Below are positions 1,590-17,580 of a DNA stretch of 17,580 nucleotides, one piece after another. The position numbers and the translations under genes were made by a program. Under the pieces are notes generated by a model that worked only from the letters and a program-made list of their open reading frames with translations, was not told the DNA's origin and made no database searches. The stretch spans positions 1 through 17,580 of the forward strand of contig JBDKUT010000007.1 of assembly GCA_039679545.1 (NCBI GenBank). The letters are read 5' to 3'. Positions within the stretch are counted from its first letter, which is position 1, and each line of letters opens with the position of its first letter. The stretch is from Thermotogota bacterium (GTDB taxonomy: Bacteria; Bipolaricaulota; Bipolaricaulia; UBA7950; UBA9294).

Positions 1590-3692
1590 CTACGCGGACC
1601 GAATTCCCGTCGTCACGAATGTCTTGCGGTCGGCGAATTCGGCCCGCTTCCCGTCGTTCCACTGCTCGACCGGGCGGAGGTACCCGACGATCCGGGAGTA
1701 GACCTCGGCCGGCGATCCACACGTCGGGCACGCCCGGTGCTCCCCGGCGATGTACCCGTGCTCGGGGCAGATCGAAAACGTCGGCGTCAGCGTGTAGTAC
1801 GGAAGGCGAAACGATTCGGCGATCTTCCGAACCAGGCGTCGCGTCGCGTCGGAGTTGGGAAGACGTTCGCCAAGGAAGCCGTGGAACACCGTCCCCCCGG
1901 TGTACTTCGCCTGGAGCGGGTCCTGGATTCGCAAGGCCTCGTACAGGTCGTCGGTGAACCCGACCGGTAGCTGCGTCGAATTCGTGTAGTACGGGGTCTT
2001 CCCGCCGTGCACCTCGAGGTTGTAGATCCGAAGGTCCGGGAACCGGTCGAGGTCCTTCTTCGCCAAGCGGTAGCTCGCACCCTCCGCCGGCGTGGCCTCG
2101 AGGTTGTAGATCTCACCGGTCTCTTCTTGGTAGGAGCCGAGCTTATCCCGCATCCAGTCGAGGACGCGGATCGCGAACATCTGCCCCGCCGGTTCAGCCA
2201 GCGAGCAGTCCATGAGGTTCAGGAGCGCCTCGTTCATGCCGAGGATGCCGATTGTGGAGAAGTGATTCCGCCAGTATCCGCCCTCCGCTTCCTTGATGCG
2301 CCGCAGGTAGAAGCGCGAGTACGGGTAGAGTCCCTGGTCCGTGAGCTGCTCGAGCGTCTTGCGCTTGATCTCGAGCGCCTTCCGGGATAGATCCATCAGA
2401 GCGCCGAGCCGACGGAAGAAGTCATCCTCGTCCGCGGCGAGATACCCAAGGCGCGGCAGGTTCAGCGTGACGACCCCGATCGAGCCGGTGAGCGGATGCG
2501 CGCCGAAGAGACCGCCCCCGCGGCTTCTGAGCTCGCGGTTGTCGATCCGCAGCCGGCAGCACATGCTGCGAGCATCCTCGGGGCGCATGTCGCTCCCGAT
2601 GAAGTTCGAGAAGTACGGGATCCCGTACTTCGCCGTCATCTCCCAGACCGGCTCGAGGACCGGGTTCTCCCAGTCGAAGTCCTCGGTGATGTTGTAGGTC
2701 GGAATCGGGAAGGTAAACGGGCGGCCCTGCGAGTCCCCCTCCATCATGACCTCGGCGAAGGCGCGATTGAACAAGTCCATCTCCGGCTGGTAGTCGCCGT
2801 AGCACGTCTTTCCGAGCGCGCCATTGAGGACGACGGGTTCTCCCGCCATGAACCGCGGCACCTTGAGGTCGAGGGTGATGTTCGTGAACGGTGTCTGGAA
2901 GCCGACGCGCGTCGGGACGTTCATGTTGTACACGAATTCCTGGATGTTCTGCCGCACCTCTTCGTAGGACAGCCCGTCGGCGCGGATGAACGGGGCGAGG
3001 TACGTATCGACGCTCGAGAACGCCTGGGCGCCCGCCGACTCGCCCTGCAGCGTGTACATGAAGTTGACGATCTGGAGCAGGGCGACACGGAAGTGCTTCG
3101 CCGGGCGGGACTCAATCTTGCCGCGCACGCCACGGAACCCGCGGAGGAGGAGGTCGCGGAGGTCCCACCCTACGCAGTAGGCGCCGAGGGTCCCCAGGTC
3201 GTGGACGTGCACGTCGCCGCTCTCGTGGGCCGTGCGGATCTGGACCGGGTAGATCTTGTGGAGCCAATACTGCGAGATGATCTTGTCCGTAATGTGGGTG
3301 TTCAGGCCTTGAAGAGAGAAGGTCATGTTGCTGTTCTCACGGACCCGCCAGTCGCGGTCGTTCAGGTAGTCCTCCACGAGGGGCATCTCGTCGAGCAGGC
3401 CGCGCATCGCGCGAAGATCTTCGTGCTGCTTGCGATAGAGAATGTACGCCTTGGCGGTACGGGCGAGGCCGCGGTCGATCAGCGTCTCCTCAACGGCGTC
3501 CTGGATCTCTTCGACGGTCGGCGGCTCGCCGACGAAGCGCTGTTCGAGGGTGCGTGTGACGCGCTCGGCCACGCCTTGGGCGAGGTATTCGTCTCCCTCT
3601 CCCACTTCTCGCATGGCCTTCCAAACCGCGGTTGTGATCTTCGTTTGGTTGAAGGAAACGACGCGGCCATCGCGCTTGACGATGCGATCCAT
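1590..3692 (-). CDS. nrdD: Class III (anaerobic) ribonucleoside-triphosphate reductase with N-terminal ATP-cone
   Basis: ATP-cone (IVKRDGRVVSF...VEEIQDAVE), SMCCRL finger loop, CPEH...CPTC metal site, glycyl-radical motif YSRIVGYLRP. SD GAGGGGG. Confidence 0.97.
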   Translation of the reverse strand: MDRIVKRDGRVVSFNQTKITTAVWKAMREVGEGDEYLAQGVAERVTRTLEQRFVGEPPTVEEIQDAVEETLIDRGLARTAKAYILYRKQHEDLRAMRGLLDEMPLVEDYLNDRDWRVRENSNMTFSLQGLNTHITDKIISQYWLHKIYPVQIRTAHESGDVHVHDLGTLGAYCVGWDLRDLLLRGFRGVRGKIESRPAKHFRVALLQIVNFMYTLQGESAGAQAFSSVDTYLAPFIRADGLSYEEVRQNIQEFVYNMNVPTRVGFQTPFTNITLDLKVPRFMAGEPVVLNGALGKTCYGDYQPEMDLFNRAFAEVMMEGDSQGRPFTFPIPTYNITEDFDWENPVLEPVWEMTAKYGIPYFSNFIGSDMRPEDARSMCCRLRIDNRELRSRGGGLFGAHPLTGSIGVVTLNLPRLGYLAADEDDFFRRLGALMDLSRKALEIKRKTLEQLTDQGLYPYSRFYLRRIKEAEGGYWRNHFSTIGILGMNEALLNLMDCSLAEPAGQMFAIRVLDWMRDKLGSYQEETGEIYNLEATPAEGASYRLAKKDLDRFPDLRIYNLEVHGGKTPYYTNSTQLPVGFTDDLYEALRIQDPLQAKYTGGTVFHGFLGERLPNSDATRRLVRKIAESFRLPYYTLTPTFSICPEHGYIAGEHRACPTCGSPAEVYSRIVGYLRPVEQWNDGKRAEFADRKTFVTTGIRSA

Positions 3693-3734
3693 GGATCCCC
3701 CCTCATCTTCGGCCTGCCGGCCGAACCCCGGACC

Positions 3735-3763
3735 ATCCTAGCCACGGACCCTGAAGCGGACAA
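3735..3763 (-). promoter_or_regulatory. Putative sigma70 promoter for nrdDG
   Basis: Minus strand TTGTCC (3763-3758), 17-nt spacer, TAGGAT (3740-3735), about 40 nt upstream of the nrdD ATG. Confidence 0.5.
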
Positions 3764-3816
3764 TCCTAGAATGTGGGGGAGGACCTCCGCGTAGCTCGCT
3801 CGATCACGCGCTCTCC

Positions 3817-3845
3817 TTGTCATCCATCGGCAGGCAGGGGACAAT
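3817..3845 (+). promoter_or_regulatory. Possible upstream promoter for rpsT
   Basis: TTGTCA-N17-GACAAT. Confidence 0.35.
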
Positions 3846-3921
3846 GGTCCCGATTCCGGGAGCGAGATCGATCCCGAGTCCGAGGCGCGACAGCGCGCCA
3901 TCGTCGCTCGGATCGACGTTC

Positions 3922-3950
3922 TTGATTCCCGATGCGGCCGTCGATACCAT
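3922..3950 (+). promoter_or_regulatory. Putative sigma70 promoter for rpsT-secF-recJ
   Basis: TTGATT (3922-3927), 17-nt spacer, TACCAT (3945-3950). Confidence 0.6.
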
Positions 3951-4004
3951 CTACCGGCACTTGTCCTGCTGATCGGATACGATCGCAACCAAGAGGTGAT
4001 TAAG

Positions 4005-4265
4005 ATTCCGAACATTGCTTCCGCAGCGAAGCGGCTGCGACAGAGCGAGAAGCGACGCGGGCTCAATCGGTCGCGTAAGGCGGCTTTGAAGCGCGTCGTC
4101 AAACAGCTTCGACTGCACATCGACGCCGGCGAGAAGAGCGACGCTATTGCGCTCCTTCCGCAGTTGTCCAAGGCGGCCGACAAGGCCGCGAAGCGCAACA
4201 CGATCCACAAGAACAGAGCCGCTCGGATCAAGTCCCGCTGGGTGAAGAAGGTCCAGGCTCTGTAG
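4005..4265 (+). CDS. rpsT: 30S ribosomal protein S20 (probable ATT start at 4005; track uses GTG at 3996)
   Basis: PNIASAAKRLRQSEKRR...N and DKAAKRNTIHKNRAARIKSR are S20 signatures. SD GAGGTGA at 3993-3999. Confidence 0.95.
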   Translation: MPNIASAAKRLRQSEKRRGLNRSRKAALKRVVKQLRLHIDAGEKSDAIALLPQLSKAADKAAKRNTIHKNRAARIKSRWVKKVQAL

Positions 4266-4276
4266 GAGGCCCTCGC

Positions 4277-5188
4277 ATGCGTCCGTACCGCTTCGACTTC
4301 CTCGGCAAGGCGAAGTACTGGGTTGCCATTTCCGTGATTGCGGTCCTGGCGAGCGTCACGCTCCTGCTCGTCAAAGGCGTCAACTTCGGCATCGACTTCA
4401 CGGGAGGACTCGAGTTCACCGTGAAGTTCCGCGACCCCGTCGCGACGGCGGACATCCGCCAGGCGCTAGGAACGATCGACGTCGAGGAGATCGATCTGCG
4501 GACCAGCAAGATCCAGCAGACCGAGGGCAACAAAGCCATCATCACGACGAAGCTCCTGAACGTCGAGGAAGACAACGCAGCGATTACCAAGATCGACGAA
4601 ACTCTCCGTTCGACGTTCCCGGTCGAAGACATCAGCCGGCGGCTGATCGGCCGGCAGGTGAGCCAGGAGCTGGCGCAGAAAGGGTGGCAGGCGATCCTCC
4701 TCGCGTTCGTCGCGCTTCTCATCTACGTCTCGTGGCGATTCCGCTTGCGCTACGCAGTCGCGGCGGTCGTCTGCCTCGTGCACGACGTCACCATCGCCCT
4801 CGGCATCTTCTGCCTGTTCGGACTCGAGATCGACCTCGAGACGGTGGCGGCGTTTCTGACGATCATCGGCTACTCGCTCAACGACACGATCGTCATCTTC
4901 GACCGCATCCGCGAGAACCTGAAGATCGAGCGGAAGATGCCGCTCTTCGACGTGATCAACCTGAGCGTGAACCAGTCCCTGTCACGAACGTTGAACACGA
5001 ACTTCACCGCAGTTGTTCCGGTGTTGATCCTCATGATCTTCGGCGGCAGCGTGTTACGCGGATTCTCGGTCGCCCTGTTCACGGGAATGGTGGTCGGAAC
5101 GTACTCGACGATGTACGTGGCAAACCCGATCCTCTACGCCTGGGCGAAGCGCGCCGACCGGACCGAGCGGGCGAAGCAGAAGGCCTAG
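4277..5188 (+). CDS. secF: Protein translocase subunit SecF
   Basis: GIDFTGG, HDV, IGYSLNDTIVIFDRIREN, SLSRT, GTYST. Six hydrophobic segments. SD AGGAGG. Confidence 0.95.
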   Translation: MRPYRFDFLGKAKYWVAISVIAVLASVTLLLVKGVNFGIDFTGGLEFTVKFRDPVATADIRQALGTIDVEEIDLRTSKIQQTEGNKAIITTKLLNVEEDNAAITKIDETLRSTFPVEDISRRLIGRQVSQELAQKGWQAILLAFVALLIYVSWRFRLRYAVAAVVCLVHDVTIALGIFCLFGLEIDLETVAAFLTIIGYSLNDTIVIFDRIRENLKIERKMPLFDVINLSVNQSLSRTLNTNFTAVVPVLILMIFGGSVLRGFSVALFTGMVVGTYSTMYVANPILYAWAKRADRTERAKQKA

Positions 5189-6919
5189 ATGCGCTCACTC
5201 CTCCGCGAGAGGAGGGAGTGGCGGGTCGCCCCCGCGCCGGACGAAGAGCTTGTTCAGACCATTCGAACCTCGCTCGGTTGCTCGCGAGCCATCGCGGTCC
5301 TTCTCGCGCAGCGGGGCGGCACTTCGTGGGATTCGCTCCTCGATCCGACGGGACAGCACTTCCACTCTCCCTGGGCGCTCGCCGACATGGACCGTGCCAC
5401 GAGTCGGCTCCTCCACGCCATTGAGGCCAAGGAGCGAATCTTCGTCCACGGCGACTTCGACGTCGACGGCCTGACGGGAGCCGCGGTCCTCTATCGCGGA
5501 CTACGGCCCCTTTTGCCGCCCAACTCCGTCAAGGTCGAAGTGGGAGATCGAGCGGCCGGGCATGGGCTGTCGCGCGCGTTCGTCCTGCGGGCCATCGACG
5601 AGGGATTCACCCTCGTCCTCACGACCGACTGCGGCGTGATGAACCACGCGGAGATCGCTGAGCTTGCCGACGCGGGGATCGACACGATCGTCACCGACCA
5701 TCATCTACCCGTCGGTGATCTGCCCCGCGCAATCGCCGTCGTCGATCCGCATCGGCCGGAGAACGCCTACCCGAACGTGAATCTCGCCGGTGTCGGCGTT
5801 GCCTACAAGCTCGTCGTCGCGTTGTACGAGCGCCTCGGCCAAGCGACGCCGCTCGCGCTCCTCGACCTCGTGGCGCTCGGGACGATCGCCGACCTCGTCC
5901 CGCTGTGCGCCGACGGCGACAACGAGAACCAGCGGCTCGTTCGCGAGGCCTTCCGTATGTTGGCCGACGGCCGGGGATCGTCGCTCGGGTTACGAACGCT
6001 GATGGCGAAGCTCTCCATCAACCCCAAGAAGCTCGGCACGTCGGACTTCGGGTATCTCGTCGCTCCGAAACTGAACGCCGCGAACCGCGCCGGCGATCCG
6101 AAAGTCGCGTTCCTTCTGCTCACCACCGAGGTGGCCGATCAGGCGGAGTACCTGGCCGAAATCCTCCTCGACTACAACCGCGATCGGGAGATCGCGCAGA
6201 ACGACCTCATCGCCCAGGCCGAAGACCTCATTCGTGCGGAGGGGCTCGACCCTCAGGAGGACGGCCTTCTCTTCCTTGTCGGCAAGTACTGGAATGAAGG
6301 GATCCTCGGGCTTGTCGCCTCCAACCTCGCGGAGCGGTACCGCGTGCCGACGATCATCCTGTCGCGCGGGGATCGGATCTCGCGCGGCTCATGCCGCAGC
6401 GTCGGCGACTTCGACATCAGCGCGTGCCTCGAAGCTCATCGTCAGTTCCTGCTGCAGTTCGGCGGACACAAGATGGCGGCCGGATTCTCCGTATCGAACG
6501 ACGGGCTCGCGGAGCTCGAAGAGAGGATGTTCGAGTACGTCGCCGATCACCGAACGTCGATCGCGGCGTTCAACCCCGAACAGATCGACGTGGAAGTCGA
6601 GCTGCGCGACGTCGACCTGCGCTTCTACACGAACCTCTCTTCGCTTGCGCCCTACGGCCCAGGAAATCCGTCACCGCGGTTTCTCCTGCGCGGGTGCACG
6701 TTCGACGGGCTCGGCCTCGTGGGAAACCGTAAGCAGCACCTCAAGGGCCGCGTGTCGCAGGATGGACATGCGCTCCCGTTCATCGGCTTTCGTTTGGGCA
6801 AGCACCTCGACACATTCGAGAGCGTCGCCGTGGCCGACCTCGTCTGCCAGATCGGCTTCGACGACTGGCGGAACGACATCCAGATCCAGGGCATCGACCT
6901 CGTCCAAGCCGCGGCGTAG
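5189..6919 (+). CDS. recJ: Single-stranded-DNA-specific exonuclease RecJ
   Basis: HGDFDVDG, TDCG, TDHH, LAGVGVAYKL, LGTIADLVPL, PKLNAANR, GSCRS, FGGHKMAAG, PYGPGNP. ATG directly follows the secF stop. Confidence 0.95.
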   Translation: MRSLLRERREWRVAPAPDEELVQTIRTSLGCSRAIAVLLAQRGGTSWDSLLDPTGQHFHSPWALADMDRATSRLLHAIEAKERIFVHGDFDVDGLTGAAVLYRGLRPLLPPNSVKVEVGDRAAGHGLSRAFVLRAIDEGFTLVLTTDCGVMNHAEIAELADAGIDTIVTDHHLPVGDLPRAIAVVDPHRPENAYPNVNLAGVGVAYKLVVALYERLGQATPLALLDLVALGTIADLVPLCADGDNENQRLVREAFRMLADGRGSSLGLRTLMAKLSINPKKLGTSDFGYLVAPKLNAANRAGDPKVAFLLLTTEVADQAEYLAEILLDYNRDREIAQNDLIAQAEDLIRAEGLDPQEDGLLFLVGKYWNEGILGLVASNLAERYRVPTIILSRGDRISRGSCRSVGDFDISACLEAHRQFLLQFGGHKMAAGFSVSNDGLAELEERMFEYVADHRTSIAAFNPEQIDVEVELRDVDLRFYTNLSSLAPYGPGNPSPRFLLRGCTFDGLGLVGNRKQHLKGRVSQDGHALPFIGFRLGKHLDTFESVAVADLVCQIGFDDWRNDIQIQGIDLVQAAA

Positions 6920-6969
6920 CTTGCCGGCCCTTCGCGCAGTGGTTGGTCAGCGCGGTCCCGGATCGGTCC

Positions 6970-6997
6970 GCCGACGCAACGACTCATCGGCGTCGGC
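6970..6997. terminator. Hairpin between convergent recJ and mnmE
   Basis: GCCGACGC-N12-GCGTCGGC, a perfect 8-bp stem. No U-tract. Confidence 0.35.
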
Positions 6998-7026
6998 CTA
7001 GCTATCTGCGGAGCCGCGCAAGCGGT

Positions 7027-8385
7027 CTATTTCCCCACGCAGAACCGTGAGAAGACGGCGTCGAGGATCGATTCGTTGACGTCGATTCCCTGAAGGTCAC
7101 CCGACGCCACGTACGCCGAGCGGAGCTCCTCCGCGATCATGTCGGGCGTCAGCCCTTCTCGCATCGCCGCAACCGAGCGCGCGACGCCGTCCCGCAAGCG
7201 TCGGAGCAGGTCGCGCTCCCACGTATCGAGGAGGAGAATCGTATTTCGGGACGGGACCTCCCCTCCGAGCAGGAGCTCGACGAAGCGCTCGGTGAGCGCG
7301 GCGAGATTCGCTCCATTCTTCGCGGAGATCTCGATCCGGCCGATCGCCGTGCCGTGGGGAACGTCGCCAGCGCGCGCCGGAAGGTCGCTCTTGTTCAGGA
7401 CGAGGAGGGCCGGCACCCCCCAATCGGTCTGGATGAGGTCCAGATCTTCGTCGGTCAGGGGTTCGCTTCGATCCACCAGGAGAAGAACGAGGTCGCTCCG
7501 CTTCGTCGCCTCTCTCGTCCGCCGGACTCCTTCGGCCTCGACAAGGTCGTTGGGAGTGCGCAGCCCCGCCGTGTCGATCAGACGGACGGGAACGCCGCCG
7601 ATCGACGCCACCTCCTCGACCGTGTCACGCGTCGTCCCGGGGATGGGCGTCACGATCGATCGCTCTTCGGCGAGAAGCGCGTTCAGGAGCGTCGACTTCC
7701 CGACGTTCGGCCGCCCGACAATGGCAACGGTGAGCCCCTCGCGGACGACGGCACCGCGCTCCGCGCGGGCAAGGAGGTCGGCGGCGCGCGCCTCGATCGC
7801 CTCGGCGCGAGGCAGGAGCTCGTCGATGACAACGTCGAGGTCCGGGAAGTCGATGTCGACCTCGAGGTCGGCGAGGAGGGCCGCGAGGTCGCCGCGCAGC
7901 GCAGCGATCGCACCCGAGAAGCGGCCTCCGAGTCGATCGACGGCGGCCTCGAGCCCGAGGCGCGTCTGCGCGTAGACGATGTCGGCGACGGCCTGGGCTT
8001 GATCGAGCGAGATCCGGCCGTTGAGGTAGGCGCGCTTCGTGAACTCGCCGCGCTCGGCGAGGCGGGCCCCGCGGGCGAGAACAGCATCAAGCACCGCCCG
8101 CGTCGCCACGATGCCGCCGTGGCAGCCGATCTCGACAACGTCTTCGCGGGTGTATGTCCGGGGCGCGCGCATGACGGAGGCGAGGACCTCGTCGACCCTT
8201 CGACCGTCGACGACGATGTGCCCATAGTGGATCGTGTGGGTCGGCGTGTCGGCGAGGCGGGACCCCTTGGGAGAGACAAACACGTCGGCGGCGATGCCGA
8301 TCGCGTCGGGGCCGCTCAACCGGACGATGCCGACGCCGCCCTCACCGATCGGCGTCGAGATGGCGGCGATCGTGTCCTCGTGCAT
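7027..8385 (-). CDS. mnmE: tRNA uridine-5-carboxymethylaminomethyl modification GTPase MnmE (TrmE)
   Basis: DTIAAISTP..GGVGIVRLSG, YTREDVVEIGCHGG, GRPNVGKSTLLN, GTTRD, DTAG, NKSD, C-terminal FCVGK. ATG at 8385 matches the family N-terminus better than the track's 8421. Confidence 0.97.
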   Translation of the reverse strand: MHEDTIAAISTPIGEGGVGIVRLSGPDAIGIAADVFVSPKGSRLADTPTHTIHYGHIVVDGRRVDEVLASVMRAPRTYTREDVVEIGCHGGIVATRAVLDAVLARGARLAERGEFTKRAYLNGRISLDQAQAVADIVYAQTRLGLEAAVDRLGGRFSGAIAALRGDLAALLADLEVDIDFPDLDVVIDELLPRAEAIEARAADLLARAERGAVVREGLTVAIVGRPNVGKSTLLNALLAEERSIVTPIPGTTRDTVEEVASIGGVPVRLIDTAGLRTPNDLVEAEGVRRTREATKRSDLVLLLVDRSEPLTDEDLDLIQTDWGVPALLVLNKSDLPARAGDVPHGTAIGRIEISAKNGANLAALTERFVELLLGGEVPSRNTILLLDTWERDLLRRLRDGVARSVAAMREGLTPDMIAEELRSAYVASGDLQGIDVNESILDAVFSRFCVGK

Positions 8386-8400
8386 AGCTACGTCTTCTCT

Positions 8401-8479
8401 TCCGGCTCCATCACGACGCATCGCCCTTCGCTGGGGCCGGCTCCGGCTCCATCACGACCCGCCGCCCCTCGCCGGAGCC
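8401..8479. repeat. Diverged tandem duplication (period 41 bp) of the jag 3' end
   Basis: 8401-8438 vs 8442-8479 match at 32/38 positions by hand, including an exact 17-mer TCCGGCTCCATCACGAC. Confidence 0.85.
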
Positions 8480-8884
8480 GACGCTGTAGGTCCGGACGCC
8501 CGGGAAGTTGGCAAGGGCCACGTGGACGGTCCGGCGCTCGTGGGCCGGCATCGCGTTCAGGCGAACCGTCTTCTTCTCGCGCACAACCTCCTCGGCCTTC
8601 GCGAGGGCGAAGCGGATCAGCTCGGCACGTCGGCGCTTCACGGCGCCGTTAGCGTCGACGATGACCTCGATCTCCTTCCCCGACTTGCGGCGCAGCGCGC
8701 CTCGGAGAAGGTGTTCCAGAGAGGTCAGGACCGGGCGTTCTTCGGGGAGCGAGAACAGGTTGCCGACGAGGTTGACGTAGAGGCCGTCCTCGCCGTCCTC
8801 CTCGATCTCGAGGGTCGCCTCCTCTTCGAGAAGCTCGAGCAGTCGCCGTACGAACGCCTCGGCCTCCTGCTTCAGTTCGTCCAC
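8411..8884 (-). CDS. jag: Jag/KhpB (EloR) family RNA-binding protein, short form with KH-like and R3H domains
   Basis: R3H motif LNAMPAHERRTVHVAL...VRTYSVGSGEGRRVV. Sits between yidC and mnmE, the classic synteny. GTG start overlaps the yidC end. Confidence 0.85.
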   Translation of the reverse strand: MDELKQEAEAFVRRLLELLEEEATLEIEEDGEDGLYVNLVGNLFSLPEERPVLTSLEHLLRGALRRKSGKEIEVIVDANGAVKRRRAELIRFALAKAEEVVREKKTVRLNAMPAHERRTVHVALANFPGVRTYSVGSGEGRRVVMEPEPAPAKGDAS

Positions 8885-10464
8885 GTCCCCCCGTCTCCGT
8901 CTCCCTTGGTCTCACTCGGGATCTCGCCCGACGTGTCGGCGGCCGGGGCGAGCTGCGCGGTCTTCTTCATCTGGCGATTGACGATCTCCTGCTGGACCAC
9001 CTGGACCGCCGTGGTCAACAGGTAGTAGAGCCAGAGGCCTGCCGGGAACTTCCAGAGCATGATCGCCATGACGACCGGGAAGATGTAGCCCATCCACTTC
9101 GCGCCCGGCGAACTCTCCACCGCCCCCTTCGGCGTCATCATCCACTGCTGCACGAGCATGACGGCCGTCGTGAGGATCACGAGAACGAAGTACGGATCGT
9201 GCAGCGAGAGGTCGGGCACCCAGAGGAATCCTGGAGACAAGTGGATCTGCTCGCCCGCGAGAAGGATCGCGCGCCAGATTAGCCAGATGATCGGGAGCTG
9301 GATGGCCATCGGCAGGCATCCGGAGAGCGGGTTGATCTTCTCCTTGCGATAGAGCTCCATCAACCGCTCCTGTTGCGCCTGCTTATCGTCCTTGTACCGC
9401 TCCTGGATCTGCTTCATCTTCGGGCCGAGCTCCTGCATCTTGGCCATGGAGCGGATCTGCTTCTGCATCAGCGGGTAGAGGAGGATGCGCACCAGGACCG
9501 TGAACAGGATGATGGCCCACCCGTAGTTTCCCGTCGCGCGGTACAGGATGTCGACGAACTGGATCACGGGGATCATCATCCGCGCGCCGACGCCGGGCTG
9601 GTCGAGCTTCTCGAGCCCGGCCTCCTTCATCAAGAGGAATCGGCGGCGTCCGCCGTAGAGCGAGCCGTCGAACTTCGTCGTTCCGCCCCCGGCTGACAGC
9701 GTCACCCCGAACTGCGCTGAGCCGGACGGCGTTCGAACGAGGAACGGGGCCGTCGCCTGCTTCGCCTTGGGAGAGAGGAAGAAGACGACGTTCTTGTTCA
9801 TCAGCCCGACCCCGTCGAACGAGGCGTACGAGCCCTTGGCGAGCTCAAGTTGGCCCGGCTCGCCGTCGAACAGGTAGTAGACCTCGAGTGGGTCCTTGTC
9901 TTTGGTCTTCAGGATGTAGTTCGCGACGGTCAGCTGGAGGTCGACGGGGCGGCCGGTCCCGTTCTCGACGATGAGGGAGAAGTCGATCGTGTACAACGCC
10001 TTGGGGCTGATCGTGTAGACCTTCCGCACCGTCATTCCGGCGAGCTTGCCTTGGAACTCCGCGCGGAAGACGCCGGTCTCGGCGTCGATCGAAGGACCGA
10101 CGAGCTGGTAGAGCCCTTCGGCAACGTCTCCCGTGGCCGTGGAAAGCGTGAACGGGAAGACCGCATCGGCGACGTACTGCCGGTTCAAGGTCTTGATGTT
10201 CGTCGTGGCACCCGGGACCAACTCCGCCGGGTTGGAGCCGTACGGCACGAAGTTGAGGAGGGCGGACTTCATCACGCCACCCTGCTCCGACAGGATGTAG
10301 TCCCCGAGCGGCGTCTTGACTTCAACGTCGCGGTAGCCCGGTTGGTCGGGCACCTCGCGGTGCAGGACCTCGTAGGTGATTTCGGGCTTCGCCGCCCAAA
10401 CGGCGGAGGATGAAAGAAGCGTCAGAAGCACAATGAGTCCCGTGACGACGAAGCGGTTGCGCAC
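8872..10464 (-). CDS. yidC: Membrane protein insertase YidC
   Basis: GNYGWAIILFTVLVRILLYPL, ELYRKEKINPLSGCLPMAIQLPI, FLWVPDLSLHDPYFVL, FPAGLWLYY. GTG start at 10464 has SD AGGAGGT, so it is preferred over the track's 10563. N-terminal signal/TM segment followed by a large extracytoplasmic domain. Confidence 0.95.
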   Translation of the reverse strand: MRNRFVVTGLIVLLTLLSSSAVWAAKPEITYEVLHREVPDQPGYRDVEVKTPLGDYILSEQGGVMKSALLNFVPYGSNPAELVPGATTNIKTLNRQYVADAVFPFTLSTATGDVAEGLYQLVGPSIDAETGVFRAEFQGKLAGMTVRKVYTISPKALYTIDFSLIVENGTGRPVDLQLTVANYILKTKDKDPLEVYYLFDGEPGQLELAKGSYASFDGVGLMNKNVVFFLSPKAKQATAPFLVRTPSGSAQFGVTLSAGGGTTKFDGSLYGGRRRFLLMKEAGLEKLDQPGVGARMMIPVIQFVDILYRATGNYGWAIILFTVLVRILLYPLMQKQIRSMAKMQELGPKMKQIQERYKDDKQAQQERLMELYRKEKINPLSGCLPMAIQLPIIWLIWRAILLAGEQIHLSPGFLWVPDLSLHDPYFVLVILTTAVMLVQQWMMTPKGAVESSPGAKWMGYIFPVVMAIMLWKFPAGLWLYYLLTTAVQVVQQEIVNRQMKKTAQLAPAADTSGEIPSETKGDGDGGTWTN

Positions 10465-10515
10465 AATGACCTCCTGAGGATAGGGTATCCGGGCTCCGAA
10501 GGCCGCGCAACTCCG

Positions 10516-10544
10516 TTGAACAGGGCATTCGGATGCACTACACT
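10516..10544 (+). promoter_or_regulatory. Putative sigma70 promoter of the rib-hisS operon
   Basis: TTGAAC-N17-TACACT, ending 11 nt before the riboflavin synthase ATG. Confidence 0.55.
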
Positions 10545-10555
10545 CGATCCCGCCC

Positions 10556-11146
10556 ATGTTCACGGGGATTGTGCAAGCGATCGGAGAGGTTCTCCGAGCG
10601 AGTCCGGGTTCCCTCGAAGTGAGTCTTCCCGCCCCGCTCGCCGGTTCACTCGCCGTTGGCGGAAGCGTCGCTGTGAACGGTGTCTGCCTGACCGCACGGT
10701 CGGTCGGGGCGGATTCCTTCGCGGCGGACGTGTCGTCGGAGACCGCGGCGCGGACGACGCTCGGCGCGTTGCGAGCCGGAGCGACGGTGAACCTTGAGCC
10801 CGCGGTCGGACCGGGCCGCGCCCTCGACGGCCACTGGGTCCTCGGGCACGTCGACGCGGTGGGGAAGATCGGCGGCCTCTACCGCGAGAAGGAGGGATGG
10901 AGTCTTATCGTCTCCTTCCCGCCGAAGTTCGCGAAGTATGTGGCCGACAAAGGATCGATCGCCGTCGACGGCGTCAGCCTGACCCCGTTCGCCGTGACGG
11001 GCGACTCGTTCCGGTGCGCGCTGATCCCGGAGACGTACGAAGCGACGATCTTCCACGAGCGGCGCCCGGGGGATCCGGTGAACCTGGAGTTCGATGTGCT
11101 CGCAAAGTATGTGGAGAGGATGATCGGGCATGTTCCTAGCCATTGA
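10556..11146 (+). CDS. ribE: Riboflavin synthase (alpha chain; called ribE or ribC depending on nomenclature)
   Basis: MFTGIV N-terminus, [49 protein letters not shown]. Confidence 0.96.
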
Positions 11147-12329
11147 GGAAGCGATTCGCCGCTACCGGGCGGGCGAGATCCTCGTCCTGGTCGACGACGA
11201 GAACCGTGAGAACGAGGGCGACCTCGTGATGGCCGCCGAACACGCGACGCCGGAGGCCGTCAACTTCATGGCGACCTACGGCCGCGGTCTGGTCTGCGTC
11301 CCGATCACCGAGGAGCGCGCCCACGGCCTTGGGCTCTCGGCGATGTGCCCGGACAACACGGCCCTTCACGGGACCTCGTTCACCGTGTCGGTCGACGCGC
11401 GGCACGGGATTTCCACCGGCATCTCAGCCTTCGACCGCGCCGAGACGATCCGTCTCCTCGTCGACGAGGAGACGTGCCCCGACGACCTCGCGCGCCCCGG
11501 CCACATCTTCCCGCTCGTCGCGCGAAGCGGCGGCGTGCTGCGGCGCGCCGGCCATACCGAGGCGACCGTCGACCTGGCACGGCTCGCCGGGCTCAAGCCG
11601 GCGGCGGTCTTGTGCGAGATCCTGAACGACGACGGCACGATGGCCCGCCTACCGCAGCTCGAGGTGTTCGCCGAGAAGCACAAGCTCGGCCTCGTCAACA
11701 TCGCCGACCTCATCGCGTACCGGAAGCGCACGGAACGCCTGATCCAGCGGGCCGCGGTCGCCGAGCTCCCCACCCGCTTCGGCAACTTCGTCATTCACAG
11801 CTACACGAGCCCGATCGAGGAAGACGAGCACGTCGCCCTCGTCATGGGCGACGTTGCGGGGAAGAAGAACGTCCTCGTGCGCGTCCACTCCGAGTGCCTC
11901 ACGGGCGACGTCTTCGGGTCGTACCGCTGCGACTGCGGCACACAGCTCCAGCGTGCACTCGAACGGATCGGCGAGGAGGGGCTTGGCGTCCTCGTCTACA
12001 TGCGCCAAGAAGGCCGCGGGATCGGCCTCTTGAACAAGGTCTGCGCGTACCAGCTCCAGGACCAGGGGCTCGACACCGTGGAGGCGAACGAGCGGCTCGG
12101 CTTCGACGCCGACCTGCGCGACTACGGGCTCGGAGCCCAGATCCTCTGCGACCTCGGCCTCACCTCGATCCGTCTCATGACCAACAACCCGAAGAAGGTC
12201 ATCGGACTCTCCGGTTACGGCCTCGACATCGTCGAGCAGGTGCCGATCGAGACGGCGCCCAACGACTACAATCGCAAGTACCTTCGGACGAAGAAAGAGA
12301 AGATGGGGCACAAGCTGGACAAGGTGTAG
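11130..12329 (+). CDS. ribBA: Bifunctional DHBP synthase / GTP cyclohydrolase II
   Basis: [63 protein letters not shown]. Confidence 0.97.
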
Positions 12330-12373
12330 GGCCGCGGGTCGGACGAAGCCGACGGCGGCCAGAGGAGGACATC

Positions 12374-12841
12374 GTGGGAAAGACCTTCGCAGGGAAGCTT
12401 GATGGGAAGGGGCTTCGCATCGGAATCGTCGTCTCTCGGTTCAACGACCTGATCACCGGACGGCTCCTCGAAGGCGCCGTCGACCGGCTGCGCCGCTCGA
12501 ACGTCGCCGAGGCGGCGATCGATGTCTGCTGGGTGCCCGGCGCGTTCGAGGTTCCGCGAGCGGTGAAGGACATGGCGGCCACGGGCCGCTACGACGGCGT
12601 CGTCGCGATCGCCGCCGTCATCCGCGGCGCCACGCCGCACTTCGAGTACGTGGCGAACGAGATCACGAAGGGCGTCGCCCGCATCAGCCTCGACGCCGAC
12701 ATCCCCGTCACGTTCGGCGTCATCACCGCCGACACCGTCGATCAGGCCATCGAGCGGGCGGGAACCAAGGCCGGGAACAAGGGCGTCCAGGCTGCCGAGA
12801 GCTTGATCGAGATGATCAACGTTCTGCGCGAGCTGAAATGA
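12374..12841 (+). CDS. ribH: 6,7-dimethyl-8-ribityllumazine synthase
   Basis: True gene is the 3' part of track ORF 11345..12841, with a GTG start at 12374 after SD GAGGAGG. Motifs IVVSRFN, WVPGAFEVP, IRGATPHFEYV, QAIERAGTKAGNKG. Confidence 0.96.
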   Translation: MGKTFAGKLDGKGLRIGIVVSRFNDLITGRLLEGAVDRLRRSNVAEAAIDVCWVPGAFEVPRAVKDMAATGRYDGVVAIAAVIRGATPHFEYVANEITKGVARISLDADIPVTFGVITADTVDQAIERAGTKAGNKGVQAAESLIEMINVLRELK

Positions 12842-14145
12842 CCTACGACCTGGTCCGAGGGATGTACGACATCCTCCCCGACGAAATGCCGTGGTGGCAG
12901 CTTGCCGAGGACGCGGTGCGCGAGATGGCGCGGCGCTACAACTACCGCGAGATCCGCGTTCCGCTCGTCGAGCACACCGAACTCTTCACCCGCGGCGTCG
13001 GCGAAGCGACCGACATCGTCACGAAGGAGATGTACACCTTCCAGGACCGCGGCGAGCGCTCCCTCACCCTTCGCCCGGAAGGCACCGCGTCCGTCGCCCG
13101 CGCCTACCTCACGCACGGGTGGCAGACAAGTGAGCCGTTCCAGAAGCTCTTCTACCTCGGACCCATGTTCCGCTACGAGAAGCCCCAGAAGGGGCGAAAC
13201 CGCCAATTCCACCAGTACGGGATCGAGGTCTTGGGCACCCTCGACCCGAGCGTCGACGCCGAGGTCATCGCCTTCGCCTGGTCGCTCATGGAGGTCCTCG
13301 GCCTCGGCGGCCTGCGGCTGCGCCTGAACTCGATCGGCTGCGCCGCCGATCGCGAGCAGTATCGCGAGATCCTGCGGAAGCACTTCGCCCCGTCAATCGA
13401 TCGGATGTGCGGCGACTGCCGCCGTCGGCTCGACGAGAACCCGCTTCGGATCCTTGACTGCAAAGAAGAACGCTGCCAGCCGTTCATCGAGGAGGCGCCG
13501 GGGAGCGCCGACCACTTGTGCCCTGAGTGCGCCGAGCATTTCGCCGCCGTGCGCGGCTGGCTTGACCGGCTCGAGCTTGCCTACGACATCGACCCGCGAC
13601 TCGTCCGCGGCCTCGACTACTACACCCGCACGGTGTTCGAGCTCATGTCGTCCGACCTCGGCTCGCAGGACACCCTCATCGGTGGCGGCCGCTACGACGG
13701 TCTGATCGAGATGCTGGGCGGGCCGCCGACCCCGGGGATCGGCTTCGCCGGCGGCCTCGAGCGTCTCGTGCTCGTGCTCCAGCAGCGCCAGCCCGACGCG
13801 ATCGAAGCCGAACGCCTCGATCTCTTCCTTGCGACTCTAGGCGACGAGGGACGTCGCACTGGCCTGAAGCTTGCGACCGACCTCAGAAGTTTCGGCATCT
13901 CCGTCGACGTCGACCACCGCGCCCGCGGCCTGCGCAAGCAGATGACCCAGGCCAACCAACTCCGCGCTCGCAACCTCCTCGTCCTCGGCGAAGACGAGGC
14001 CCGCGCCGGGAAGGGCAAGTTGAAAGACATGGATTCCGGCGAGGAGCGTGAAGTCTCGCTCGACCCCGAGAGCCTAGCGGAACTCCTCTATCCTGAGTGC
14101 GGCTGCGACCACGAGGGCGGCGGCAGCTGCGGGTGCAGTTCCTAG
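12838..14145 (+). CDS. hisS: Histidyl-tRNA synthetase
   Basis: RGMYDILP, KEMYTF, LRPEGTA, GPMFRYEKPQKGRNRQFHQ, LVRGLDYYTRTVFE, GGGRYDGL, GFAGGLERL. ATGA overlap with ribH. Confidence 0.97.
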   Translation: MTYDLVRGMYDILPDEMPWWQLAEDAVREMARRYNYREIRVPLVEHTELFTRGVGEATDIVTKEMYTFQDRGERSLTLRPEGTASVARAYLTHGWQTSEPFQKLFYLGPMFRYEKPQKGRNRQFHQYGIEVLGTLDPSVDAEVIAFAWSLMEVLGLGGLRLRLNSIGCAADREQYREILRKHFAPSIDRMCGDCRRRLDENPLRILDCKEERCQPFIEEAPGSADHLCPECAEHFAAVRGWLDRLELAYDIDPRLVRGLDYYTRTVFELMSSDLGSQDTLIGGGRYDGLIEMLGGPPTPGIGFAGGLERLVLVLQQRQPDAIEAERLDLFLATLGDEGRRTGLKLATDLRSFGISVDVDHRARGLRKQMTQANQLRARNLLVLGEDEARAGKGKLKDMDSGEEREVSLDPESLAELLYPECGCDHEGGGSCGCSS

Positions 14146-14154
14146 GAGGGTAGC

Positions 14155-14637
14155 ATGGACCTAAAGCTCGTAGAGATCGAGAACCCCGACAGCCTGAACC
14201 TGATCCTCGGCCAGTCGCACTTCATCAAGACCGTCGAGGACGTCCACGAAGCCCTCGTCGGCGCCGTGCCTGGGATTCAGTTCGGGCTCGCGTTCTGTGA
14301 AGCCTCCGGCGACTGCCTCGTCCGCCACTCCGGCACCGAGCCCAAGCTCGAACAGCTCGCGATCAAGAACGCACAGACCATCGGCGCCGGTCACTCGTTC
14401 ATCGTATTCCTCGGCAACGCCTTCCCGATCAACGTCCTCCAAGCCATCCAGCGCGTCCCCGAGGTCTGCCAGATCTTCTGTGCTACTTCGAACGCCGTCC
14501 AGGTCATCGTCACCGAGACCGAGCAAGGCCGCGGCATCCTTGGCGTCATCGACGGATCGACTCCCAAGGGCATCGAGGACGACAAGGGCATCGCCTGGCG
14601 CAAAGGCTTCCTGCGGAAGATTGGGTACAAGGGGTAA
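14155..14637 (+). CDS. Adenosine-specific kinase family protein (DUF355-like)
   Basis: [78 protein letters not shown]. Confidence 0.88.
   Translation: MDLKLVEIENPDSLNLILGQSHFIKTVEDVHEALVGAVPGIQFGLAFCEASGDCLVRHSGTEPKLEQLAIKNAQTIGAGHSFIVFLGNAFPINVLQAIQRVPEVCQIFCATSNAVQVIVTETEQGRGILGVIDGSTPKGIEDDKGIAWRKGFLRKIGYKG
14458..14637 (+). repeat. Left copy of a 180-bp direct repeat (3' end of the kinase-family gene)
   Basis: Aligns without gaps to 16503-16682. 156/180 identical by hand count. Confidence 0.95.
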
Positions 14638-14645
14638 TGTGAGCA

Positions 14646-14696
14646 GGCCGCAAGTGACACAGCTCGTCAGGCAGCGGGACTTGCGGCCAGGCTTTT
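14646..14696 (+). terminator. Hairpin downstream of the rib-hisS-kinase operon
   Basis: GGCCGCAAGT-N23-ACTTGCGGCC, a perfect 10-bp stem, followed by AGGCTTTT. Confidence 0.45.
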
Positions 14697-14723
14697 GTCT
14701 GCAACTCCCCGATGATGTAATAT
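14695..14723 (+). promoter_or_regulatory. Putative promoter for small ORF A
   Basis: TTGTCT-N17-TAATAT, overlapping an extended -10-like TGATGTAAT. Confidence 0.5.
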
Positions 14724-14768
14724 CGCGCGGATCGATTCGTTGCGTAGCGACTTGAGAGGTGGCTAGCG

Positions 14769-14885
14769 ATGACGAACGCTCTATTGAGGAAGCAACCATG
14801 CGACCGGGCAAGGTCAGAAGCCGCGCAGGCTGTATTAACAAGGATTGCTGGCCCGAGAGATGGTGATGGCCCTGGGCATCCGTAG
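14769..14885 (+). CDS. Small peptide A, 38 aa: MTNALLRKQPCDRARSEAAQAVLTRIAGPRDGDGPGHP
   Basis: SD GAGGTG 7 nt before the ATG, an upstream promoter, a downstream hairpin, and similarity to peptide C. Below the ORF track's length cutoff. Confidence 0.65.
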   Translation: MTNALLRKQPCDRARSEAAQAVLTRIAGPRDGDGPGHP

Positions 14886-14892
14886 AGTCGCC

Positions 14893-14925
14893 TAGGGAAA
14901 GGCCTTCATGCGGGCCTCTCTCCTA
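14893..14925. terminator. Hairpin between convergent peptide A and the 304-aa gene
   Basis: TAGGGAAAGGCC-N8-GGCCTCTCTCCTA, a stem with one bulge and one mismatch. Confidence 0.5.
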
Positions 14926-14936
14926 TCGGCGGTCGC

Positions 14937-15851
14937 TTACCACTGTGGCGCGACTCGCCGCCGCACGGTGTCAGCCAACCTACTTGCGGACAAGAAGAGG
15001 AGCAGGTTCACCCTTCGCCAACGACTTCGAATAGGCAGGCACCTGACTCGGTAGGAGTATGTGCCTTCCGCAGGCCCGAGGATGGTCCAGCAGACACCTC
15101 GCAAGCCCTGGCCGAGGTCCTCGATCTCTACCGTTCCTTGGCGTCTGTGGATAGGTCCCCGCCTCATCTCAAGCCTCTCTGCTGGAACACCTCGCGGCGG
15201 AATGAGGACAATCCTTAGTTCGTCCGCCAGGTCTCGTAGGTGGTAAGAGCAGCTCTTGTCGAGCCCTCGAGCCCGCAAGTCGCTCCAGAGCCCTCGAACC
15301 TTTGCCGAGACTAAGACGCTTCTCTTCTCGGACTCGCGAATGGATGGTAGGAACCAGGCACAGACTTTGATCCTGCCATTGGCCAAGGCGTCTTCGATAG
15401 GCAAGAGAAGGACCTCTGTACCGCTGTCGGATGAGGCAGTTAGCCCCAATTCATCGAAGGAGAGCGGTTTGGGACCGTGTACCCCAGTAGCGCCGAAGTC
15501 CAGTTCCTTGCCCAGGATCGGCTTTTCGCCGACTGCGACGGAAAAATCGTAGTGTCGCTCCTGCCAGTCGCTTCGTGCCGTTAGCCCAATGTGGTAGATG
15601 ACCGAGATTCGTCGCGCGTGGACCCTCGGGGGAATGAACTCCTCAATTGCTGTCCGGAAGTCCTCAATCAGCTCGTTTTGGCGCTCGCGGCAACGAACGA
15701 GTAGCCGGTGCTTACGCCACAGGTGCAACAGGGCGATGCCGAGTATTGCCGCCAGGCCTACGGTGACTCCACCCAGCGGATCTCCTCCAACAAGGTATAC
15801 GATCACCCCGGGGACAAAGGCTAACGCCCACTCGACCAACGAACGTACCAT
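14937..15851 (-). CDS. Hypothetical membrane-anchored protein D (two N-terminal TM segments plus a beta-rich soluble domain)
   Basis: 304-aa ORF in less GC-rich DNA. Hydrophobic segments WALAFVPGVIVYLVGG and GVTVGLAAILGIALLHLW, then basic RKHR, a helical linker and alternating beta-strand patterns. No family recognised. No clear SD. Confidence 0.8.
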   Translation of the reverse strand: MVRSLVEWALAFVPGVIVYLVGGDPLGGVTVGLAAILGIALLHLWRKHRLLVRCRERQNELIEDFRTAIEEFIPPRVHARRISVIYHIGLTARSDWQERHYDFSVAVGEKPILGKELDFGATGVHGPKPLSFDELGLTASSDSGTEVLLLPIEDALANGRIKVCAWFLPSIRESEKRSVLVSAKVRGLWSDLRARGLDKSCSYHLRDLADELRIVLIPPRGVPAERLEMRRGPIHRRQGTVEIEDLGQGLRGVCWTILGPAEGTYSYRVRCLPIRSRWRRVNLLLFLSASRLADTVRRRVAPQW

Positions 15852-15884
15852 AGAAGGCCCGCGCGTGATGTACCGCGCTTCGCA

Positions 15885-15992
15885 CTAGGCTCGTGTCGGC
15901 CCGTCACCGTCTTCCGGCCCCATCTTCTGCACTGACTTCCCCTCGCGGCGGGTAGTCGCGGCACACCTCACTGGTTGCCTGATCAGTGACAT
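15885..15992 (-). CDS. Small peptide C, 35 aa: MSLIRQPVRCAATTRREGKSVQKMGPEDGDGPTRA
   Basis: ATG overlaps the peptide B stop (TGATG), with GGTGG just upstream. Similar to peptide A. Corresponds to the 3' part of track ORF 15885..16157. Confidence 0.6.
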   Translation of the reverse strand: MSLIRQPVRCAATTRREGKSVQKMGPEDGDGPTRA

Positions 15993-16147
15993 CAGATACC
16001 ACCGTCCCGTGGCCCGTCGCCGAGGAGCAAACACCTGACCTCGAAGCCGGCGTGCGGACCACCCCGCACGGCTCCGCCGACCGCTGAAATCCCGAGGCTT
16101 CCGATAACTAGACAGCAGATCACGAACACACAAACCCGATCCCGCAT
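15992..16147 (-). CDS. Small putatively exported peptide B, 51 aa: MRDRVCVFVICCLVIGSLGISAVGGAVRGGPHAGFEVRCLLLGDGPRDGGI
   Basis: GGAGGG about 10 nt upstream. Charged n-region plus hydrophobic h-region like a signal peptide. C-terminal GDGPRDGG. Corresponds to the 3' part of track ORF 15992..16201. Confidence 0.65.
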   Translation of the reverse strand: MRDRVCVFVICCLVIGSLGISAVGGAVRGGPHAGFEVRCLLLGDGPRDGGI

Positions 16148-16343
16148 CTCCGGCCATCCCTCCGCCTGCTTCTTGTCAACTGACACTTCTCTCCGACCCA
16201 CGACTGCACGGAAAAGGCAGGGACCCGCCTTGGAGATCGTGGTTCCTAAGCACGATGCTCCCGCGGTTCCCAGGGTGTCTAGTAGAAGGTCAGGATGACA
16301 GTCCGCAACTCAGACAGATGATGTGCGGTCTCCATGACTTACC

Positions 16344-16371
16344 ACTATACATGTATGTGGTTCGAAGTCAA
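16344..16371 (-). promoter_or_regulatory. Near-consensus sigma70 promoter facing B-C-D, embedded in an inverted repeat
   Basis: Minus strand TTGACT (16371-16366), 16-nt spacer, TATAGT (16349-16344). Inverted repeat spans 16335-16370. Confidence 0.65.
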
Positions 16372-16502
16372 GAGATTGAATCGACAGGAGATAGTGTCTT
16401 CCGTGCGGCGTGGTTGCCGTCAACTCGGGATGCAGCACCGGACAAAGTGAGGAGGCTCCGGAAGGCGTGAAACGCGGCTGCCAACAGGCGATGTGACGAA
16501 GC

Positions 16503-16682
16503 CCCGAGGTCTGCTGCATCTTCTGTGCCACCTCGAACCCCGTAGAGGTCGTCGTCGCCGAGACCAAGCAAGGCCGCGGCATCCTCGGCGTGATCGACGG
16601 CGCGCCGCCGAAAGGCATCGAGGACGACAAGGGCATCGCTTGGCGCAAAGGCTTCCCGCGCAAGATCGGGTACAAGGGGTAG
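16503..16682 (+). pseudogene. Orphan 3' fragment (59 codons) of the adenosine-specific kinase family gene; right copy of the direct repeat
   Basis: Translates [59 protein letters not shown]. An in-frame TGA at 16494-16496 lies upstream and there is no 5' part. Confidence 0.93.
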
Positions 16683-16876
16683 GGTCCGCCGGTCGCAGAA
16701 CTGCGCCCGCTGCGTGGCAAACTACAGGCTACGAGCTGCCCAGTTCATTTCGGGCAGAAGCACTTGTGGAAACATCAGACTACGCGTCACGCGTTGCGTG
16801 TACGCTCTCGCGAGCGGCCAAACAGGGTTGGCCGATACCGGGCCAAGGGAGGAGGACGGCAAAACCGTAACGTTAG

Positions 16877-17428
16877 CACCTCCTCGAACTGGCCCGGTAT
16901 GTGGTGCTGAACCCCGTGCGGGCGCGAGCTGTGCGGAGCGTCCGCGACTGGCCGTGGTCAAGCTACCGCGCAACAGCAGGGATGGCGGAAGTACCCAAGT
17001 TCCTCACGACTGACTGGATTCTTTCGCAGTTCCATCGGACCCCACGCCGCGCAATCGAGCTCTACCACGAGTTCGTAAAGCAGGGCCGCGGCGTCAACGC
17101 CTGGACCGAGCTGCGGGGCGGCATCCTGCTCGGTACCGACGAGTTCGTCGACAAGCTGAAGCCGCTCCTCTCAGACTACGAGGCGCTGAAAGAGATCCCA
17201 CGCCGCGAGCGTCTTGCTGCCCGACCGAGCCTTGACGAGCTGTTCTCCAAGGTGCGTGACAAGAAGGCACGCAACAGGCAGATCCACGCGGCCGTCCGCG
17301 TTCACGAGTACACGCTTCAGGCGGTCGCCGACTTCCTTGGCCTTCACTACTCGACCATCAGCGTCATCGCCAAGCGCGTCGCCGCCGACCGGAGAACACA
17401 AAAAGTGAAGATCTCGTACATTGCGTAG
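16877..17428 (+). pseudogene. 5'-truncated Y1 (HUH) / REP-associated tyrosine transposase-like gene with C-terminal HTH
   Basis: HLLELARYVVLNPVRA...DWPWSSYRATAG...LG.DEFV...YTLQAVADFLGLHYSTIS matches the C-terminal half of RAYT-like Y1 transposases. In-frame TAG at 16874-16876. The N-terminal HUH part is absent. Confidence 0.82.
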
Positions 17429-17580
17429 GCGTTGACGAAGCCGGTTGCTCTCTAGACTAGTGACGGATGGAGAGTCTGTCGGGTGGGCAGGTCGGTGAAG
17501 ATCGGAACGGCACTTGTGCCAGTTCGTGGGTCAGATGGACCGCCCTCCCACAAGCCCGGACAGCATCTGGAGCGCAGCTC

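Follow-up and report, generated by a model that had tools for sequence, protein, structure and literature searches.

We describe here a compact group of genes on a 17,580-nucleotide (nt) stretch of DNA from a Thermotogota bacterium (GCA_039679545.1, contig JBDKUT010000007.1, forward strand, positions 1-17,580; hereafter the window), in which very small genes encoding proteins that end in a GPxDG motif surround a gene for a predicted membrane-anchored protein, D. The pairing of such tiny genes with D recurs in distant relatives and matches no described system. The group consists of three micro-open reading frames (micro-ORFs), A, B and C, and gene D, all of which were found in place with the coordinates and endings claimed for them in a first-pass annotation of the window. 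That annotation did not recognise the system as a described one, and we found no family match for it either: it is undescribed in Pfam, PADLOC, NCBIfam and PHROGs as well as in the literature searched, where searches on motif strings returned unrelated papers only and a general search on micro-proteins returned nothing relevant. Our analysis covers the genome that contains the window (2,353,244 bases; G000), a phylum set of 184 genomes, a D-family set of 35 relatives at E <=0.001, and five D loci, namely the window locus, a metagenome contig (L013) and loci in three other genomes, G176 (L015), G080 (L016) and G135 (L017).

A, B and C are three paralogous micro-proteins that share only the C-terminal GPxDG(DGP) motif. 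The motif reads GPRDGDGP in A (14850-14873) and GPEDGDGP in C (15897-15920), the latter being a basic protein with a net charge of +3, and neither protein has a signal sequence. B carries the shorter GPRDG (16001-16015) and has a hydrophobic N-terminal helix. The stop codon of B and the start codon of C overlap as TGATG, with base 15992 common to both; since this overlap is the usual sign of translational coupling, B and C are probably coupled in this way. In a six-frame translation of the whole genome, GP[RE]DG occurs 29 times, three of them at this locus, and the longer GP[RE]DGDGP occurs only twice, both times here. The first-pass annotation had proposed a check against shuffled sequence, and none of 5000 dinucleotide-preserving shuffles of 14653-16501 reached three GP.DG occurrences (mean 0.064) or contained the eight-residue form. 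None of 44 D-family proteins contains the motif. The small ORFs are absent from a collection of 5.8 billion proteins, and an alignment of B found no match in a word-indexed protein search.

The codons that encode the motif in A, B and C differ at synonymous positions, and the individual codons quoted in the first-pass annotation were verified. Among the four full motif copies of the window and L013, seven of the eight third codon positions vary but only two of the 16 first and second positions, with glycine encoded as GGC, GGG, GGT and GGA, proline by four codons, and arginine as AGA, CGA and CGG. Since the peptide served to find the copies, the constancy of codon positions 1 and 2 is built into this comparison; what it does tell us is that nothing is conserved apart from the peptide. 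A 23-nt back-translated pattern of the motif gave seven matches in the 184 phylum genomes against five for the reversed control, which is background level; two matches lie in this contig, the only one with as many, and the five elsewhere fall in wrong frames of larger ORFs. Several other explanations of the motif were considered and set aside. Its resemblance to a thrombospondin-type calcium loop, a sortase-like LPxTG tag or an EF-P-type stalling motif is partial and comes without the features that accompany these elements. The motif ORFs are not remnants of the duplicated gene end that flanks them (see below), as that repeat encodes ...RKIGYKG instead.

The same arrangement is found at a close independent locus. 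L013 is a metagenome contig of 2002 nt whose D' protein is 48% identical to D and whose gene order, a B', C', D' operon with a convergent A', is that of the window. B', whose 5' part is cut off by the contig end, reads ...VCFVAAVAIGGVA...FAQCVVLGPRDGG and ends ...VVLGPRDGG; C' begins 4 nt after the B' stop, reads MPEHKRSRSRKRRKGPRDGDGPVAKTE and contains ...RRKGPRDGDGP...; and D' begins 16 nt after C'. The convergent A' (MCALDCLHGQSHSQASDPGPKDGDGPGRQSGNSFGFSYRPF) contains ...GPKDGDGPG..., and its stop codon abuts that of D'. B and B' align over the hydrophobic helix and F..C..LG..PRDGG, and both have a hydrophobic N-terminal helix with a maximum KD15 of 2.8, a hydropathy measure and not a signal-peptide predictor. 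The DNA around the motifs no longer aligns meaningfully between the two loci. No modifying enzyme, leader protease or dedicated exporter is present at L013.

Further evidence comes from remote members of the D family. A profile search identified D relatives in four of the 184 phylum genomes, the window's own included. Two of these loci, in G176 and G080, encode proteins with about 23-25% identity to D, and each has a convergent small ORF that ends in GPDDG. In G176 this is an 18-residue ORF (MLIRTVYVVLLNGPDDGE) that ends NGPDDGE, lies 40 nt beyond the D stop and 4 nt downstream of the hup stop, and is followed by a strong hairpin (z -4.0). It lies within a D insert of about 1.8 kb that is missing from six relatives in the genus; in these, the match on the hup side begins at the hup stop codon, which marks the insert border, and two of the six also match the far side, with about 220 nt in place of the 1.8 kb. 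No direct repeats were found at the borders of this insert. In G080 two convergent ORFs lie beyond the D stop, the first of 37 residues ending FAGPDDGT and the second of 15 residues (MSENFQNGPDDSTGG) with an AAGGAGG Shine-Dalgarno site and a terminator with a 14-bp stem. Counted on both strands, the background of the back-translated GP.DG pattern GGNCCNNNNGAYGGN is 62 matches for G176 (2.8 Mb) and 26 for G080 (2.9 Mb), from which we compute about 0.002 and 0.0007 expected matches, respectively, per 160-nt zone on one strand.

Altogether four of the five D loci have a small convergent ORF in which the motif lies close to the end, A-type counterparts being present in L013, L015 and L016, whereas L017 has none. 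Two claims of the first-pass annotation, that the peptides are under selection and that the small ORFs belong with D, are backed by the shared layout of L013 and by the two remote loci. These comparisons support the view that the small ORFs are selected as peptides and that they belong with D, and they suggest that the conserved partner across the D family is the convergent, signal-less A type and not B. Two further observations concern these loci. In G176, a 149-residue polytopic membrane protein without a Pfam match and with an internal PADGE is encoded 5' of the D gene (L015 942-1391, plus strand), inside the same insert of about 1.8 kb and in place of B and C. In G135, the D gene is immediately preceded by another D-like ORF, which has diverged strongly (L017 2382-3284, minus strand; hhalign probability 95.9%).

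An exhaustive search of 1.84 billion representative proteins gave the 35 relatives of protein D, of which eight are at E <=1e-10 and two at <=1e-30; they include one archaeal record, and their annotation never goes beyond "hypothetical protein". In the word-indexed protein search D alone found only P0001 (48% identity), and the family profile found only P0001 and P0023. Matches to D in the Atlas were clusters of hypothetical proteins only. No further D loci were found in genome contigs (alignments A2 and A6), in viral contigs (A2, P0016, P0005 and P0031), or by tblastn of D against plasmids and phages. D has no Pfam match at E <=1 except one at chance level and is unmatched in PADLOC, NCBIfam and PHROGs; its profile gave only a chance-level match to PDB sequences (E 0.27), and a fold search of BFVD gave no match at E <=0.001. 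Residues Y86, D95 and W189 are invariant throughout the family, at least 90% of whose members also retain P151, L192, R193, G196, D198 and P219.

The structure model of D is a confident one. It shows two hydrophobic helices, at residues of about 5-21 and 26-45, and a long helix that extends as far as residue 72; the beta-saddle domain (78-270) comes next, followed by the C-terminal helix (277-300). D is therefore predicted to be anchored in the membrane by a two-helix N-terminal hairpin, and because a basic stretch, RKHRLLVRCRER, follows the second transmembrane (TM) helix, the positive-inside rule would place the beta domain in the cytoplasm. Its closest structural matches are ribophorin I/OST1 (Z 13.4 and 13.2), the N-domain of M1 aminopeptidases (Z 9-11) and a DUF3857-type structure, 3kd4 (Z 10.5). 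The M1 enzymes align with model residues of about 75-272 by their N-terminal beta domain only; D has no Peptidase_M1 Pfam match and no catalytic domain, so that it differs from these enzymes in lacking their zinc peptidase domain. No function follows from the fold that D has in common with ribophorin I and the M1 N-domain. One relative, P0023 (499 residues), has no TM segment; instead of the membrane hairpin of D it has a patatin phospholipase at its N-terminus (Pfam E 7e-31; PADLOC phospholipase effector 2e-10). Exchanges of this kind, in which membrane-attacking modules alternate on one C-terminal domain, are typical of defence effectors. The build of D, a TM hairpin joined to a beta domain with a patatin swap in P0023, is effector-like.

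The cassette of about 1.85 kb (14653-16501) contains only D and the micro-ORFs, and it is a strain-specific, mobile insert. It follows an Adenosine_kin gene (14155-14637, plus strand; PF04008, E 1.9e-75) and is bordered by direct repeats of 196 nt whose copies are 85% identical at a spacing of 2045, and none of 30 relatives matches the window at 14637-16877. This layout resembles the outcome of a Campbell-type integration by a circle bearing its own diverged copy of the gene end. In the sister genome G005, the space between this gene and its duplicated 3' end of about 260 nt is occupied by an RHH protein and a toxin of the PemK/MazF type (E 1.2e-20; L010, G005:C106, 1075-2611). The G080 module, which has multi-copy repeats on its flanks, likewise has no match in the 14 further genomes from its genus.

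Table 1. Features of the D cassette and its borders in the window
Feature	Positions	Strand	Description
Left direct repeat copy	14457-14652	+	3' end of Adenosine_kin gene plus 15 nt; left insert border
Promoter of A	14695-14723	+	TTGTCT, 17 nt, TAATAT
Micro-ORF A	14769-14885	+	38 aa, convergent with D; ends GPRDGDGPGHP; C-terminal part AGPRDGDGPGHP
Hairpin between convergent A and D	14888-14932	both	-24.9 and -25.6 kcal/mol; z -1.8 and -2.3
Gene D	14937-15851	-	304 aa; 35 relatives; pLDDT 91.9, pTM 0.83 (model confidence measures)
Micro-ORF C	15885-15992	-	35 aa, starting at an ATG within a 90-aa frame; ends GPEDGDGPTRA; C-terminal part MGPEDGDGPTRA
Micro-ORF B	15992-16147	-	51 aa from ATG (69 aa if GTG 16201 used); ends LLGDGPRDGGI
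Promoter-like site of B-C-D operon	16371-16344	-	TTGACT, 16 nt, TATAGT; 10/12
Right direct repeat copy	16502-16697	+	displaced, decayed Adenosine_kin 3' end; right border; 30-aa remnant ORF 16590-16682

The reading that we tentatively favour is that these genes form a module resembling toxin-antitoxin or abortive-infection systems, in which the GPxDG micro-proteins would bind and restrain the membrane effector D. D would be held in the membrane by its N-terminal helical hairpin with the beta-saddle domain on the cytoplasmic side, and the motif would act as a short docking peptide for this domain, so that the micro-proteins keep D inactive. A would be supplied from its own strong convergent promoter and B and C from the D operon, while the A-type ORF of G176 might be expressed by read-through from hup. 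Loss or displacement of the peptides would then allow D to damage the membrane. The ORFs, the motif with its conservation at the peptide level and its linkage to the D family, the mobility of the cassette and the architecture of D are shown; the binding, the toxicity and the direction of control in this scheme are inferred. The closest parallel is the SpoIISABC system of Bacillus, in which SpoIISA is a membrane toxin that two small cytosolic paralogues, SpoIISB and SpoIISC, neutralise by binding its cytosolic domain, with an additional promoter for one of the small genes (PMC4926146). D resembles SpoIISA in architecture only, with predicted N-terminal TM segments and a cytosolic C-terminal domain, and it too is adjoined by small paralogous proteins, one of which, A, has its own promoter. 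The two systems differ in several respects, however. D is unrelated to SpoIISA in sequence, with no SpoIISA Pfam match for 36 family members (E <=0.01), and has two hydrophobic helices instead of three and a beta-saddle cytosolic fold. The micro-proteins share only a short C-terminal motif, whereas the whole chain of SpoIISB wraps the toxin; one partner is convergent with D; and the D module is mobile and patchy and not core to its genus.

Several observations weigh against this toxin-antitoxin reading. D has no toxin or defence family match in Pfam, PADLOC, NCBIfam or PHROGs. The linkage of motif ORFs to the D family rests on five loci, at one of which, L017, no GP.DG is found in 3.75 kb, and upstream ORFs of the B and C types were not seen at the G176 and G080 loci. 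Three antitoxins for one toxin are unusual. Moreover, if B, with its hydrophobic N-terminus, is exported or has its C-terminus outside, its motif would miss the cytoplasmic domain.

A non-toxic role is the strongest of the alternatives, although we consider it rather unlikely. The module would be real and conserved, with the peptides serving some membrane function of D, for example as its subunits, chaperones or regulators, and with no role in addiction or defence. MgrB, AcrZ and MgtS are examples of small proteins that act on membrane partners. All the evidence that links the motif ORFs to D serves this explanation equally well, D has no recognisable toxin domain, and its fold class, as in ribophorin I and the M1 N-domain, is known from scaffolds that handle proteins or peptides rather than from killers. 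A patchy, strain-specific distribution (four of 184 genomes) is nevertheless better suited to selfish or defence modules, and the occupation of the same insertion spot by a MazF pair in the sister genome and the replacement of the hairpin by patatin in P0023 also argue against it.

Peptide signalling, which the first-pass annotation had preferred while naming a defence or toxin-antitoxin role as the alternative, seems improbable to us, and the genomic context favours that alternative. According to the signalling proposal, B would be secreted and processed to a C-terminal GPRDG signal, D would be its receptor, and A and C would serve as intracellular mimics or antagonists. The hydrophobic N-terminal helix and conserved C-terminal part of B and B' are consistent with this, and the pro-peptides secreted in RRNPP systems carry the mature signal at their C-terminal end. 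The resemblance to Rap-Phr and AimR-AimP extends to small ORFs with a functional C-terminal part that adjoin a candidate receptor on a mobile element. However, the family-wide partner is of the A type, which lacks a signal sequence, and B-type ORFs are absent at the two remote loci; several motif copies are present, one of them on the opposite strand. The prediction places the beta domain of D in the cytoplasm, no TM segment is present in the relative fused to patatin, and the cassette has no processing or import genes. D also lacks a TPR fold, a DNA-binding or phosphatase output and a kinase. On this last point the first-pass annotation was right that D is neither an RRNPP receptor nor a histidine kinase: it has no such Pfam match and its model shows no TPR fold. 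We favour a toxin-antitoxin or defence role over signalling because the A partner is signal-less, the insert lies at a spot used by a MazF/RHH pair, and a relative carries patatin in place of the hairpin.

Two other explanations appear very improbable. The small ORFs could be ribosomal precursors of a natural product or bacteriocin with D as an immunity or handling protein, as is suggested by several small paralogous ORFs adjoining a membrane protein in a mobile cassette, but no modifying enzyme, leader protease or exporter lies between the repeats as it would in clusters for ribosomally synthesised and modified peptides or bacteriocins, the conserved part is a short C-terminal motif and not a leader, and the A type is convergent with its own promoter. 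It is just as hard to credit that the ORFs are incidental to a DNA or RNA element, such as an inverted repeat on either side of D that serves in recombination, in long-range mRNA pairing or in the binding of a protein. The motifs of A and C do make up a 24-nt inverted repeat, though an imperfect one, with D in between (17 of 24 identical in the window, 16 of 24 in L013), and part of the B motif is also the Shine-Dalgarno region of C, but the third-position variation and the use of AGA, CGA and CGG for arginine speak against it, as do the background frequency of the 23-nt pattern, the one-sided copies at the remote loci, and the mismatches between the A and C arms, which fall at wobble positions and are not compensated, so that long-range pairing of the two arms was rejected.

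In architecture the D module comes closest to systems that pair a membrane toxin with small-protein antitoxins. Among the membrane effectors of signal-activated defence systems, the CBASS effector Cap15 consists of two TM helices and a beta-barrel, and CapV is a patatin. D is similar in having an N-terminal TM hairpin and a C-terminal beta-rich domain, with patatin in place of the hairpin in P0023. In contrast to CBASS and Pycsar effectors, however, its cassette contains no cyclase or other signal-making enzyme, D has no PADLOC match, its beta domain of about 200 residues is ribophorin- or M1 N-domain-like, and the candidate ligand is a gene-encoded peptide. The bsrG/SR4 and txpA/RatA loci of B. 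subtilis are type I toxin-antitoxin loci with convergent transcripts that overlap at their 3' ends. The A and D units also converge at their 3' ends, and the small partner has a strong, constitutive-looking promoter, but A is conserved as a peptide and not as an RNA, and D is a protein of 304 residues and not a small hydrophobic toxin. The convergent layout and the abutting stop codons in L013 would make antisense interference between the A and D transcripts possible.

Among the transcription signals proposed in the first-pass annotation, the promoter of A, a GAGG 9 nt 5' of its ATG and a promoter-like site for the B-C-D operon are present. The stability of the hairpin between A and D is modest, and it is possible that this hairpin acts as a two-way terminator. 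The pattern TTGTC[AT]-N17-TAATAT has a single match in the whole 2.35-Mb genome, which is the A promoter, and the A' promoter of L013 lies at the homologous place (TTGTCA-17-TAATAT, 1314-1286, minus strand), with GATGTAATAT common to both loci. No Rfam match at E <=1 was found in 14400-17000. A plus-strand ORF of 71 residues (16255-16470) overlaps the B-C-D promoter region; it has no family match and is probably no gene. As DNA, nearly identical copies of the cassette were found in contigs from one landfill and two wastewater runs, but no RNA run was listed as containing it, and a metatranscriptome contig matched 14590-14630 only. In the landfill run (X3) the cassette shows a few single-base differences, at 15935, 15702-15704, 15483 and 15113; the motifs are unaffected, and the difference at 15935 replaces Ser20 of C, which lies in its variable part, by Pro.

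The surroundings of the cassette show some features of their own. The 3' end of the Adenosine_kin gene is an insertion hot spot, which holds the D cassette in G000 and the PemK/MazF and RHH pair in G005, with no integrase inside. A transposase-like gene with a C-terminal helix-turn-helix (16877-17428, plus strand) is truncated at its 5' end in the window and is multi-copy in relatives; it is 97% identical to a G005 copy (L010 4011-4601), compared with 79-87% for neighbouring housekeeping genes, and another copy adjoins the D-like genes of G135 (L017 3435-3749). The full-length form in G005 has no Pfam match at E <=0.001. On the other side, the histidyl-tRNA synthetase gene (12838-14145, plus strand) ends in an unusual Cys/Gly-rich tail, ...ECGCDHEGGGSCGCSS.

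If the toxin-antitoxin reading is true, the membrane-acting toxin-antitoxin and defence modules would gain two new families, one of proteins, with D, and one of micro-proteins, and control would be exerted through a motif of five to eight residues that is easily mutated and tested. The locus also illustrates that functional, conserved genes of 15-50 codons may be detected from their sequence alone through a common motif around an orphan gene. A broader proposal, which we regard as possible but doubtful, is that the GPxDG micro-proteins and the D family constitute a new, widely scattered mobile class of two-part systems, in which the motif is the specific ligand that gates an effector via a beta-saddle sensor resembling ribophorin and the M1 N-domain. 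Such a class would represent a peptide-gated switch for cell suicide or defence that is unrelated to the toxin-antitoxin, CBASS or RRNPP families, with an effector of the membrane type or, in one relative, a patatin lipase, and with micro-protein partners that are invisible to standard gene callers.

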